64,000 nucleotides of DNA from NCBI RefSeq assembly GCF_055900595.2, contig NZ_CM148325.1; one strand, 5' to 3'. The position numbers were made by a program, and so were the translations under genes. Positions within the stretch are counted from its first letter, which is position 1; each line of letters opens with the position of its first letter. The notes below the pieces were generated by a model. That model worked only from the letters and a program-made list of their open reading frames with translations, ran no database searches and was not told where the DNA came from. Of this stretch, positions 7,754-10,976 are shown piece after piece.

Positions 7754-8206
7754 TTATTCCTTACCCAGCAATGCCTGCAGATCCTGCTTTAAAGAAGACA
7801 TTTTATTCGCGTATTTCTCTTTGTTTTCCGCATCTTCAATCAGCTGAACAATCGTTTCGGAAAGTGTTTTACCGCGACGCTGCGCAAGACCAGCCAGACG
7901 TTGCCAGACAATAAATTCCAGATCGATCGATTTTTTGCGCGTATGCTGGTGTTCCGCATTAAAATGGCGCTTTCGTCTGGCCCGAATGGTCTGCTTCATG
8001 CGATTGACCAGCTCTGGATTCATATGCTTGTCAATCCAGCCATTTACCAGCACGGGTTCATTTTCCAGCGAGAGCAACACATCGACGGCTTCCTGGGCGG
8101 CACTGGCTTCTATGTAACGGGTGATTAACTCCCCTTCGCGGTGCTTCTTCACCAGATACTTCCATTTCCAACCGCTTTCAAGATTTTCAAGTTGTTGATA
8201 TTTCAT
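7754..8206 (-). CDS. matP: Macrodomain Ter organiser MatP
   Basis: 150-aa [85 protein letters not shown]...; ATG at 8206. Confidence 0.93.
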
Positions 8207-8391
8207 AGCGATCTCAATGTTACCGTGTAACTCTTTACAGAATATCAGCTTTTTAGGCCAGTGAAGAAAAGAATCTCCATCCTGTGAGCTTTAACGCCCA
8301 TGCCAGGAGTATTGTCGGTGCTTTCTACGTGTGCTGCAGTGCCGGTTACGGTATAATCGCGGCTTTGACAACAGACTAAAAAACATCAACT

Positions 8392-10152
8392 TTGACCATT
8401 ACGAAACTTGCATGGCGTGACCTGCTTCCTGATACCGATAGCTATCAGGAAATATTTGCTCAGCCACATTTGATTGACGAAAACGATCCTTTATTCAGTG
8501 ATACTCAACCGCGACTGCAATTTGCGCTGGAGCAGTTGCTGCATACGCGAGCATCCTCCTCTTTCATGCTGGCGAAGGCCCCGGAAGAGTCTGAGTATCT
8601 GAATCTTATTGCCGATGCCGCGCGTGCGCTACAAAGCGATGCAGGCCAACTGGTGGGCGGTCACTATGAGGTTTCCGGCCACACCATCCGCTTACGTAAC
8701 GCAGTGAGTGCAGATGATAATTTTGCGACTTTAACGCAAGTTGTCGCTGCCGACTGGGTAGAAGCGGAACAACTCTTTGGCTGCCTGCGCCAGTTTAATG
8801 GTGACATTACCCTGCAGCCAGGTCTGGTGCATCAGGCAAATGGCGGTATTCTCATCGTCTCTTTGCGTACACTGCTGGCGCAACCTCTGCTGTGGATGCG
8901 GCTGAAAAATATCGTTAACCGCGAGCGTTTTGACTGGGTTGCGTTTGATGAGTCGCGCCCTCTCCCCGTCTCTGTGCCTTCGATGCCATTGAAGCTGAAA
9001 GTCATTCTGGTAGGCGAACGCGAATCATTAGCTGATTTCCAGGAGATGGAGCCAGAGCTTGCTGAGCAGGCTATTTATAGCGAATTTGAAGATACTCTGC
9101 AGATTGTCGATGCGGAGTCAGTAAACCAGTGGTGTCGTTGGGTGACATTTACCGCCAGACATAACCACTTACCTGCACCGGGAGCGGATGCCTGGCCGGT
9201 ACTTATTCGCGAAGCCGCACGCTACACCGGTGAACAAGAAACACTGCCGCTTAGCCCGCAGTGGATCCTCCGCCAGTGTAAAGAGGTCGCCTCACTGTGT
9301 GATGGCGACACCTTCTCCGGCGAGCAGCTAAACTTAATGTTACAGCAGCGTGAATGGCGCGAAGGTTTCCTCGCTGAACGCATGCAGGATGAGATCCTTC
9401 AGGAGCAAATCCTGATTGAAACCGAAGGCGAACGCATCGGGCAAATTAACGCCCTTTCGGTCATTGAATTTCCGGGTCATCCGCGCGCTTTTGGCGAACC
9501 TTCTCGCATTAGCTGCGTTGTACATATTGGCGATGGTGAATTCACTGACATCGAACGCAAAGCGGAGCTTGGCGGCAATATCCATGCGAAAGGGATGATG
9601 ATCATGCAGGCGTTCCTGATGTCGGAACTTCAGCTTGAGCAACAGATCCCCTTCTCAGCATCGCTGACATTTGAGCAGTCATATAGCGAAGTGGATGGCG
9701 ATAGTGCCTCAATGGCTGAACTCTGCGCCCTGATAAGCGCCCTCGCCGATGTGCCGGTGAATCAGAGTATTGCTATCACAGGTTCAGTCGATCAATTCGG
9801 TCGCGCCCAGCCAGTCGGTGGTTTAAATGAGAAAATCGAAGGCTTCTTTGCTATTTGCCAGCAACGTGAGTTAACGGGGAAACAAGGTGTCATTATCCCC
9901 ACTGCTAACGTTCGCCATTTAAGTCTTCACAGTGAACTGGTGAAAGCAGTAGAGGAAGGCAAATTCACCATCTGGGCAGTAGACGATGTGACTGAAGCAC
10001 TGCCGTTATTATTAAATCTGGTGTGGGATGGCGAGGGCCAAACGACGCTGATGCAAACCATCCAGGAACGTATCGCGCAAGCATCGCAACAGGAAGGACG
10101 TCATCGTTTTCCATGGCCATTACGTTGGCTGAACTGGTTTATTCCGAACTGA
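8392..10152 (+). CDS. ycbZ: Lon-like protease YcbZ
   Basis: 586-aa [25 protein letters not shown]... with C-terminal Lon proteolytic-domain-like region (...[17 protein letters not shown]...); annotated start codon is TTG at 8392. Confidence 0.88.
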
Positions 10153-10163
10153 TCGGACTTGTT
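10147..10163. promoter_or_regulatory. FadR activator site of the fabA promoter
   Basis: AACTGATCGGACTTGTT matches FadR consensus AACTGGTCNGACCTGTT; lies ~60 bp upstream of the fabA ATG. Confidence 0.5.
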
Positions 10164-10164
10164 C

Positions 10165-10182
10165 AGCGTACACGTGTTAGCT
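10165..10182. promoter_or_regulatory. Putative FabR repressor site
   Basis: AGCGTACACGTGTTAGCT with central palindrome ACACGTGT immediately downstream of the FadR site; assignment from recalled fabA promoter architecture. Confidence 0.4.
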
Positions 10183-10220
10183 ATCCTGCGTGCTTCAATA
10201 AAATAAGGCTTACAGAGAAC

Positions 10221-10739
10221 ATGGTAGATAAACGCGAATCCTATACAAAAGAAGACCTTCTTGCCTCTGGTCGCGGTGAACTGTTTGGCGCTAAAGGCCC
10301 GCAATTGCCAGCACCGAACATGCTGATGATGGACCGTGTGGTCAAAATGACCGAAACGGGTGGTAACTTCGACAAAGGGTATGTTGAAGCAGAACTGGAT
10401 ATCAATCCGGATCTGTGGTTCTTCGGATGCCACTTCATTGGCGATCCGGTTATGCCGGGATGCCTGGGCCTGGACGCAATGTGGCAGCTGGTAGGGTTCT
10501 ACCTCGGCTGGCTGGGCGGCGAAGGTAAAGGCCGCGCACTGGGTGTTGGCGAAGTGAAATTCACTGGTCAGGTTCTGCCGACAGCAAAAAAAGTGACCTA
10601 CCGTATTCACTTTAAACGCATTGTTAATCGTCGTCTGATTATGGGTCTGGCAGATGGCGAAGTGCTGGTTGATGGTCGTCTGATCTATACCGCCAGCGAC
10701 CTGAAAGTCGGTCTGTTCCAGGATACGTCTGCCTTCTGA
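10221..10739 (+). CDS. fabA: 3-hydroxydecanoyl-ACP dehydratase/isomerase
   Basis: ATG 10221 [48 protein letters not shown]...[21 protein letters not shown]..., 172 aa; ORF track 10023.. is an upstream extension. Confidence 0.95.
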
Positions 10740-10766
10740 TTGAAATCAGACAGAGTATAAATAGGC

Positions 10767-10796
10767 GAAACCTCCGCAATGCGGAGGTTTCTTTTT
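10767..10796. terminator. Bidirectional intrinsic terminator between convergent fabA and rmf
   Basis: GAAACCTCCGCAATGCGGAGGTTTCTTTTT: stem CCTCCGC/GCGGAGG with A-run on one side and T-run on the other. Confidence 0.65.
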
Positions 10797-10808
10797 AAAG
10801 AGACAGAA

Positions 10809-10976
10809 TCAGGCCATTACTACCCTGTCCGCCATGGCTTCTCGCCAGCCTCCCAGCCATTGTGACCTTTGATTCAGCGTCTGATAGGGACACATTTCTT
10901 TTGAGCGTCCGGCGATGCCGGCCTGATAACCACGTTGATGTGCCCGTTCCAGGCGATCTCGTTTTTGTCTCTTCAT
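10809..10976 (-). CDS. rmf: Ribosome modulation factor
   Basis: Reverse-strand translation MKRQKRDRLERAHQRGYQAGIAGRSKEMCPYQTLNQRSQWLGGWREAMADRVVMA (55 aa); missing from the ORF track, which reports a spurious overlapping ORF in another frame. Confidence 0.93.
   Translation of the reverse strand: MKRQKRDRLERAHQRGYQAGIAGRSKEMCPYQTLNQRSQWLGGWREAMADRVVMA

Follow-up and report, generated by a model that had tools for sequence, protein, structure and literature searches.

Why should a gene for an orphan protease end inside an operator that controls its neighbor, and what kind of protease does it encode? These questions are raised by ycbZ (lonH) of Escherichia coli, which occupies positions 8392 to 10152 on the plus strand of a 64,000-nucleotide (nt) stretch of DNA from NCBI RefSeq assembly GCF_055900595.2, contig NZ_CM148325.1 (the window), and encodes a product of 586 residues. 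Gene order at the locus is ompA (+), matP (-), ycbZ (+), fabA (+, 10221-10739), rmf (-), and pqiC (-). The reading we favor, and consider likely, is that ycbZ encodes a LonC-class, probably ATP-independent protease from a conserved, weak TTG start codon, and that it heads an operon in which the last 270 bp of ycbZ serve as control DNA for fabA, with the FadR operator supplying both the last codon and the stop codon of the protease gene.

The features that make up the end of ycbZ and the beginning of fabA are as follows.

9949-9963, plus strand: CpxR box of fabA, GTAGAGGAAGGCAAA, within ycbZ codons 520-524; the pattern lies at -272 to -258 from the fabA ATG.
About 10018, plus strand: acid-induced fabA transcription start S3, inside ycbZ; mapped by rapid amplification of cDNA ends (Xu et al. 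2020) to 203 bp 5' of the ATG and placed here by arithmetic.
10147-10163, no strand assigned: fabA FadR operator, AACTGATCGGACTTGTT, which contains the ycbZ stop codon; identical to the published probe.
10150-10152, plus strand: ycbZ stop codon TGA, positions 4-6 of the FadR box.
10165-10182, no strand assigned: FabR operator palindrome, AGCGTACACGTGTTAGCT, inside the published fabA probe; the FabR box is described in the literature.
10182-10187, plus strand: TATCCT, putative -10 element of the FadR-dependent fabA promoter, placed by its spacing to the FadR site.
10221-10739, plus strand: fabA coding sequence.

The -10 element could be placed because FadR binds at about -40. The FadR box scores 19.4 bits against a position weight matrix (PWM) built from seven published E. 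coli sites, this one included, and window positions 10138-10193 match, base for base, the fabA probe published for FadR gel shifts. A preliminary description of this DNA had put the ycbZ stop inside a FadR box at 10147-10163, and the identity of that box to the probe, with TGA at 10150-10152, bears this out. The published work extends the overlap, as a CpxR footprint covers -272 to -258 upstream of fabA, and three fabA starts have been mapped, S1 activated by FadR, S2 repressed by FabR, and S3 induced by acid (Xu et al. 2020). The sharing of coding and control DNA at the ycbZ-fabA junction is larger than the preliminary description stated. The last ~270 bp of ycbZ would double as a fabA control region, reading in order through the CpxR box, the S3 promoter, the relic of a distal palindrome described below, and the FadR operator with the ycbZ TGA; beyond the stop codon, the FabR operator, the -10 element, and a short leader would follow within 68 nt.

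A closely similar module precedes fabB, where near-identical tandem operators, GGCTGATCGGACTTGTT followed by CGGCGTACAAGTGTACGCT, are found. There, apparently no upstream coding sequence extends over the box (the upstream DNA is TCTATTAAATGG, as read from the probe sequence rather than from annotation), whereas the fabA FadR box supplies the last sense codon and the stop codon of ycbZ. The fabB comparison also disposes of one attractive idea, that a requirement for a stop codon fixes the A in CTGATC, where fad operators have CTGGTC; it was rejected because CTGATCGGACTTGTT is shared by the fabB operator.

The arrangement is widely conserved. A comparative scan, limited to one genome per species, returned 80 loci, of which 53 were counted as YcbZ-type orthologues with downstream DNA and compared with 26 loci encoding LonC-like paralogues. 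The orthologue loci come from Enterobacterales, Orbaceae, Vibrionaceae, Pasteurellaceae, Aeromonas, Idiomarinaceae, and Zobellella, and fabA lies directly downstream of ycbZ on the same strand in every one (53/53). No paralogue locus (0/26) has fabA within 2.5 kb. In 27 of the 53 loci, 22 from Enterobacterales and 5 from Vibrionaceae, ranging from Escherichia to Photobacterium and Aliivibrio, the ycbZ stop codon is the TGA of the pattern nnCTGATC[CG]GAnTTGnn, at the same offset. Between ycbZ and fabA lie 68-69 nt in most of these Enterobacterales loci, as against 64-65 nt in those of Vibrionaceae. The last YcbZ residue at these loci varies (Asn, Gly, Ser, Tyr, Arg, or His), and its codon always has the form nnC, as is expected if position 3 of the box is fixed. 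Elsewhere, in several Vibrio, Providencia, Pectobacterium, Aeromonas, Idiomarinaceae, Zobellella, and Photorhabdus, ycbZ stops 0-33 nt upstream of the box; in Photorhabdus the stop is TAA and stands 8 nt away from it. Three Pasteurellaceae loci (L034, L035, and L041) carry a terminator-like hairpin, GCGAACAnnTGTTCGC, followed by a run of T between the two genes, with a spacer of 180-204 nt, yet keep both adjacency and orientation. Judged from these sequences, the stop-in-operator arrangement is older than the split between Enterobacterales and Vibrionales.

The last codons of ycbZ hold a second element. In many species a perfect palindrome, TGGTNNNACCA, lies 15 nt 5' of the classical FadR box, where the codons for Asn-Trp-Phe-Asn-Gln/His read AACTGGTT[TC]AACCA[GTC]; its core and spacing are those of the fadBA operator, ATCTGGTACGACCAGAT. 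The pattern occurs 20 times in the 499 kb of fetched loci, against 7.6 occurrences expected, and 11 of the 20 fall at the homologous position. Taxa with the palindrome at that position are Cedecea, three species named Enterobacter, Shimwellia, two Yersinia, Hafnia, Erwinia psidii, Aliivibrio, Pectobacterium, and Brenneria; at L016 and L017 (Yersinia), L019, L008, L012, L044, L045, L021, and L023 it lies at -86 to -83 from the fabA ATG. In E. coli it takes the following form.

10132-10148, no strand assigned: AACTGGTTTATTCCGAA, the E. coli relic, with the left half only and three mismatches to TGGTNNNACCA.

The ycbZ genes of Pectobacterium and Brenneria end sooner; the proximal box there lacks CTGATC, and the palindrome is non-coding yet preserved, which argues that it is kept at the level of DNA. 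Codon choice is consistent with such retention, as the codon for Asn581 is AAC in 26 of 28 orthologues, where AAC makes up only 13-72% of Asn codons in the same genes, and for the adjacent Phe either TTT or TTC is used without evident preference. We hypothesize that FadR may bind the distal palindrome; its copies score only 7-11 bits against the same PWM, compared with at least 14.9 bits for known sites. In E. coli, the right half of the palindrome is replaced by ATT CCG, the codons for Ile584 and Pro585, and these belong to a translational arrest motif.

10060-10149, plus strand: last 30 codons of ycbZ, I557-N586, a published ribosome-arrest motif; the window peptide is identical to the motif of Fujita et al. 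2022.

The stall codons are those of Pro585 (10144-10146, P site) and Asn586 (AAC, 10147-10149, A site), so that the FadR box opens with the codon for Asn586 and continues directly into its TGA. The tRNA-Asn required in the A site normally carries queuosine. On K-12 ycbZ the ribosome halts when Pro585 occupies the P site and Asn586 the A site, a pause that exceeds the one at Pro166 of SecM; reporters, cryo-electron microscopy, and tRNA-seq confirmed the stall, to which Pro585, Asn586, and W579/L580 are important and the 3' untranslated region is not (Fujita et al. 2022). That paper makes no mention of fabA or FadR. In a tgt mutant, which lacks queuosine, YcbZ ranks with the four proteins that increase most (log2 +1.06), fabA mRNA is raised as well (log2 +0.69), and the report (PMC9508795) does not connect the rise in YcbZ to the stall. 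A link between the two is suggestive only. Among the orthologues, Pro585-Asn586 occurs only in the Escherichia/Citrobacter/Salmonella group, in Phytobacter (L018), and in one Enterobacter sp. (L046). Other genera have C-termini such as NHN, NQG, SAN, and the like, with W579 and L580 conserved more widely; poor conservation of the arrest residues was also remarked by Fujita et al. 2022.

The position of the stall invites an alternative reading of the whole junction, in which the YcbZ arrest peptide is a cis-acting device of the SecM or MifM type that tunes fabA expression from read-through or S3 transcripts, or else adjusts how much YcbZ is made, in response to the state of translation, such as the queuosine modification of tRNA-Asn. 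As in secM-secA and other arrest-peptide operons, a nascent-chain stall ends the upstream reading frame shortly before a gene on the same transcript, here 71 nt 5' of the fabA ATG. The stall outdoes that of SecM and has been reproduced in vitro, by cryo-electron microscopy, and by tRNA-seq; it falls exactly at the operator and stop codon; YcbZ rises about two-fold, and fabA mRNA rises too, in the tgt mutant; and ycbZ-fabA adjacency is universal. Unlike the short leader of secM-secA, however, the stalling reading frame is that of a 586-residue enzyme with no known effect on the gene downstream, the Pro585-Asn586 pair is confined to a narrow clade, and no structural switch is predicted. When the ribosome footprint was forced open, the fabA ribosome-binding site had a predicted accessibility that went from 0.46 to 0.48 in one transcript context and from 0.61 to 0.44 in the other; shifts so small, and of opposite sign, lend no support to an unmasking of that site in the manner of SecM. 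A 151-nt fold at the junction is no more stable than shuffled sequences (z -0.4). A 49-nt RNA hairpin at 10124-10172, around the stall (free energy -17.7, z -3.6), is more stable than shuffled sequences but was rejected as a conserved structure, as RNAalifold returned no consensus structure for 27 junctions and the base pairs of the E. coli hairpin exhibit no covariation beyond that of shuffles in 27 species. The hairpin is a by-product of operator and coding sequence. Most fabA mRNA, moreover, should begin beyond the stall site, at the FadR-dependent promoter. We consider a regulatory device of this kind improbable.

An evolutionary scenario that would join the two elements deserves, in our judgment, equally little confidence. 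In it, the last six ycbZ codons and the stop codon began as two tandem FadR-type operators, and in Escherichia, Salmonella, and Citrobacter the right half of the distal one (AAC CAx) became ATT CCG, creating the Ile-Pro-Asn arrest, for which the A-site codon and the stop codon would be fixed by the proximal operator. A queuosine-sensitive stall and transcriptional read-through would then couple translation to the output of YcbZ and fabA, and the linkage of the two genes would represent a tie between protease and lipid homeostasis. The codons of a very strong E. coli stall are, in any case, codons fixed by an operator, and here a constraint on DNA may have shaped a translational arrest.

Returning to the reading of ycbZ as the head of an operon, we considered whether transcripts cross the junction. 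The preliminary description had asserted that ycbZ transcription must traverse the fabA control region, an assertion that a ycbZ terminator upstream of the FadR site could have overturned. A sequence scan found no terminator-like site between ycbZ and fabA. The first one downstream of ycbZ is the following.

10767-10791, no strand assigned: bidirectional intrinsic terminator serving fabA and the convergent rmf; GC-rich 11-bp stem with T-runs on both strands.

Term-seq 3' ends are found at this terminator on both strands, and on the strand of ycbZ the Term-seq table lists only this post-fabA terminator, with no 3' end at the ycbZ-fabA junction. The operon itself is known from the literature, where single-nucleotide RNA-seq places ycbZ and fabA in one operon served by nested promoters, classed as primary, internal, and secondary (Conway et al. 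2014). Taken together, the published operon, the Term-seq table, and the terminator scan uphold the assertion. A sigma-70 consensus scan of 8150-10900 found zero promoters despite the published fabA and ycbZ promoters there, and is too strict to inform the question. On the opposite strand, Term-seq records a bicyclomycin-sensitive, that is Rho-dependent, antisense 3' end at about 10135 (minus strand; K-12 position 1016556, + strand), just past the FadR box. It most probably represents read-through from rmf across fabA and the operators; rmf transcripts can end inside the ycbZ-fabA operon (Conway 2014). In the mechanism we propose, ycbZ would be the promoter-proximal gene of a transcription unit without an internal terminator, and fabA would be made from its own FadR-, FabR-, and CpxR-controlled promoters as well as by read-through of the ycbZ transcript, the latter contribution being inferred.

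The opposite view would treat ycbZ and fabA as independent units, with polymerase halted at or before the operators, whether by a FadR/FabR roadblock or by Rho, and the overlap as inherited compaction. A compact spacer with an operator in the path of polymerase could conceivably act as a roadblock, fabA does have its own mapped promoters, and the Pasteurellaceae loci place a terminator-like hairpin between the genes. Such independence is nevertheless hard to reconcile with the RNA-seq operon call, with the lack, between the genes, of 3' ends in the Term-seq table and of any T-run terminator structure, and with adjacency and orientation kept in 53 of 53 loci, which is above expectation for unrelated neighbors passively inherited across several orders. 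We regard this view as doubtful, slightly more so than the arrest-peptide device.

The class of the protein was examined by motif, family model, alignment, and fold. The residues on which the assignment turns are encoded as follows.

8578-8601, plus strand: APEESEYL, codons 63-70, at the position of the Walker A P-loop; aligns with GxxGxG[KR][HT] of long LonC-type relatives.
8842-8865, plus strand: GGILIVSL, codons 151-158, at the position of Walker B, without Asp-Glu; aligns with MtaLonC GGYLILDA, described in the literature as Walker B-like.
9703-9705, plus strand: codon for Ser438, catalytic serine; aligns with MtaLonC S582.
9832-9834, plus strand: codon for Lys481, catalytic lysine; aligns with MtaLonC K625.

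A regular-expression search of all 586 residues found no G..G.GK[ST], GK[ST], or hhhhD[ED] motif. Pfam recognizes only a partial AAA_32 region (residues 140-225, the C-terminal two-thirds of that domain) and, above cut-off, Lon_C (E-value 1.8e-10). The best NCBIfam model is LonB (TIGR00764), which scores 86.8 bits against a cut-off of 516.6; Lon (TIGR00763) scores 31.5 against 608. Ser438 and Lys481 are invariant in alignments of 26 and 123 relatives, and the larger alignment places acidic residues, glutamates, at the glycine and lysine positions of the P-loop. The closest solved relative is MtaLonC (TTC1975; E-value 9e-57), which YcbZ residues 140-547 match over LonC residues 296-691. The first 139 residues cannot be matched to LonC by sequence, yet an AlphaFold2 model built from the 123-sequence alignment (mean predicted local distance difference test 94.4, predicted template modeling (TM) score 0.89) includes a complete AAA-like fold, in which the P-loop position is occupied by a beta-strand (58-62), a loop, and a helix (67-80). 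Over its full length the model matches MtaLonC crystal chains with TM scores of 0.81-0.83; normalized to the target, the scores are 0.79-0.83 for the crystal chains (581-603 modeled residues) and 0.58-0.64 for complete MtaLonC cryo-electron microscopy chains.

Both of the protease-domain insertions that are specific to LonC, as defined by Liao et al. 2012, are present in YcbZ, namely C489QQRELTG496 and L516VKAV520, corresponding to MtaLonC C633-G640 and V660-V664; the family consensus of the first is CxxRGLTG, and E. coli YcbZ has Glu in place of Gly. Lon_C with a Ser-Lys dyad makes YcbZ a member of the Lon family (MEROPS S16). Of the traits of LonC, it has the two insertions and the absence of Walker A and B motifs, and it lacks the large insertion domain, being about 145 residues shorter (586 vs 732). 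A further mark of the LonC subfamily is a ring-shaped oligomer that degrades unfolded substrates independently of ATP. The traits of LonA and LonB, Walker A (GxxGxGK[ST]), Walker B (hhhhDE), and an equivalog-level score, are all missing. MtaLonC (PDB 4FW9, 4FWD, and 8K8V), which has no ATPase activity (Liao et al. 2012), is thus the best match in sequence and fold and shares the dyad, the insertions, and degenerate AAA+ motifs; it differs from YcbZ in its insertion domain, in a P-loop that reads GPPSLGKHE rather than APEESEYL, and in clade, YcbZ belonging to a separate one that is always linked to fabA. LonB of Thermococcus onnurineus (PDB 3K1J) is the second-best fold match (TM ~0.7) and has the same order of domains; unlike YcbZ, which has neither and falls far below the family cut-off, it has working Walker motifs and a membrane anchor. 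By these comparisons, YcbZ is a short LonC-class protein with a nucleotide site more degenerate than that of MtaLonC, and by analogy with MtaLonC it most probably acts without ATP hydrolysis. The preliminary description had called YcbZ a Lon-family protein without a Walker A motif, a statement that an intact AAA+ module would have undone; an AAA-like fold is indeed present, the nucleotide-binding motifs are absent, and the statement stands, supported by the partial AAA_32 and Lon_C matches, APEESEYL at the P-loop position, and the sub-cut-off NCBIfam scores. That YcbZ is instead a conventional ATP-dependent AAA+ Lon protease, as its RefSeq and K-12 product names, the AAA_32 match, and the confidently predicted AAA-like fold might suggest, is very improbable given the loss of both Walker motifs, the glutamates at the P-loop glycine and lysine positions, the LonB score of 86.8 against 516.6 bits, and a closest solved relative devoid of ATPase activity.

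The start of the gene is defined by the following features.

8352-8357, plus strand: TATAAT hexamer, tentative candidate for the ycbZ -10 element, read from the sequence; the consensus scan gives no full sigma-70 match.
8377-8379, plus strand: in-frame TAA, the 5' limit of the open frame.
8392-8394, plus strand: ycbZ start codon TTG, the sole canonical start before codon 27.
8392-10152, plus strand: ycbZ (lonH) coding sequence, 586 residues, LonC-class Lon-like serine protease.
8426-8451, plus strand: perfect 9-bp inverted repeat (RNA hairpin) in ycbZ codons 12-20; -11.6 kcal/mol, z -4.3.

The same extent is annotated in K-12 (b0955) and in the closest genome, and the start region differs from that of b0955 at 2 of 274 positions, neither of them near the start codon. 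Later in-frame starts, TTG at codon 27 and ATG at codon 59, are excluded because conserved N-terminal residues, the invariant L11 and P13 (found in at least 90% of orthologues), precede both. In 28 Enterobacterales-type loci, representing about 20 genera, the corresponding codon is TTG; in Providencia it is GTG, and in 11 Vibrionaceae loci an ATG lies two codons downstream of the homologous position. At many loci TTG is the only candidate, as the frame opens just 3-5 codons upstream. The claim that TTG at 8392 is the only start compatible with a full-length product thus agrees with the upstream TAA, with the positions of the next starts, and with conservation in orthologues. No Shine-Dalgarno-like run occurs in the 22 nt 5' of the TTG, where the leader is A-rich. 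Conservation across Enterobacterales of a TTG without a Shine-Dalgarno sequence suggests that low or regulated initiation has been selected, and we infer that initiation at this codon is probably weak. The inverted repeat sits 34 nt past the TTG. Of the nine base pairs in its hairpin, 7-9 survive in Escherichia, Citrobacter, Superficieibacter, Cedecea, and Enterobacter-type loci; the hairpin is lost in more distant taxa and could influence initiation at the weak start. As to the locus at large, window positions 8200-10300 are matched in 5425 of 5426 complete genomes, the top match being strain Z0117EC0005 at 99.9% identity. The lineage is uncommon in E. coli, with identity of at least 99% in only 15 of the 5425 genomes and about 97.8% in most.

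Several points weigh against the reading of ycbZ as an operon-heading, ATP-independent protease gene with a weak TTG start. The hairpin between the genes in Pasteurellaceae implies that co-transcription is not universal. The TTG assignment is drawn from sequence and annotation, and ycbZ has no entry in an N-terminomics data set. ATP independence is argued from MtaLonC and from motif loss, while the name given by RefSeq and its annotation pipeline PGAP in thousands of genomes is "AAA family ATPase", and that of the K-12 protein is "putative ATP-dependent protease". We believe that these names are probably wrong and that YcbZ should be treated as a LonC-class, ATP-independent protein.

What YcbZ does is still obscure in the literature, in keeping with the preliminary description, which had called it an orphan. 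Papers from 2020 and 2022 (the latter Fujita et al.) term it uncharacterized, and a 2026 paper has it only as a "putative ATP-dependent protease". Increased stop-codon read-through has been attributed to a ycbZ mutant (Gagarinova 2016, as cited by Fujita et al. 2022 and PMC9508795), and in published work cells with ycbZ inactivated resist numerous compounds, erythromycin and EDTA among them. The last 22 residues of YcbZ (565-586; 10084-10149) were recovered in a two-hybrid screen of 2026 (PMC13232886) as a fragment that interacts with RNase E; this is the same C-terminal tail that stalls the ribosome.

Because at least 270 bp of fabA control DNA lie inside ycbZ, and because ycbZ transcripts enter fabA, phenotypes of ycbZ deletions and insertions (multidrug, erythromycin, and EDTA resistance, and stop-codon read-through) may partly reflect effects on the essential fabA. 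The standard Keio deletion of ycbZ keeps only the last 21 nt of the gene, so that fabA would lose its CpxR box and S3 and the promoter of the cassette would come to lie in front of the FadR box. Since such a deletion would disturb fabA control DNA, published ycbZ phenotypes could include altered fabA expression.

The preliminary description had judged the matter mostly established, rightly insofar as databases or papers already contained the gene with its boundaries, both operators (FadR and FabR), and the operon. The LonC class, the CpxR box and S3 within ycbZ, the arrest site at the overlap, and the deep conservation go beyond it. What is new here is the invariant linkage of ycbZ to fabA, the finding that both the TTG start and the placement of the stop inside the operator are deeply conserved, the distal palindrome that the arrest motif has replaced in E. 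coli, and the caution that ycbZ mutants may act in cis on fabA. Adjacency of ycbZ and fabA, invariant across five orders, offers the best lead so far on what this orphan protease does, and it points to lipid metabolism.

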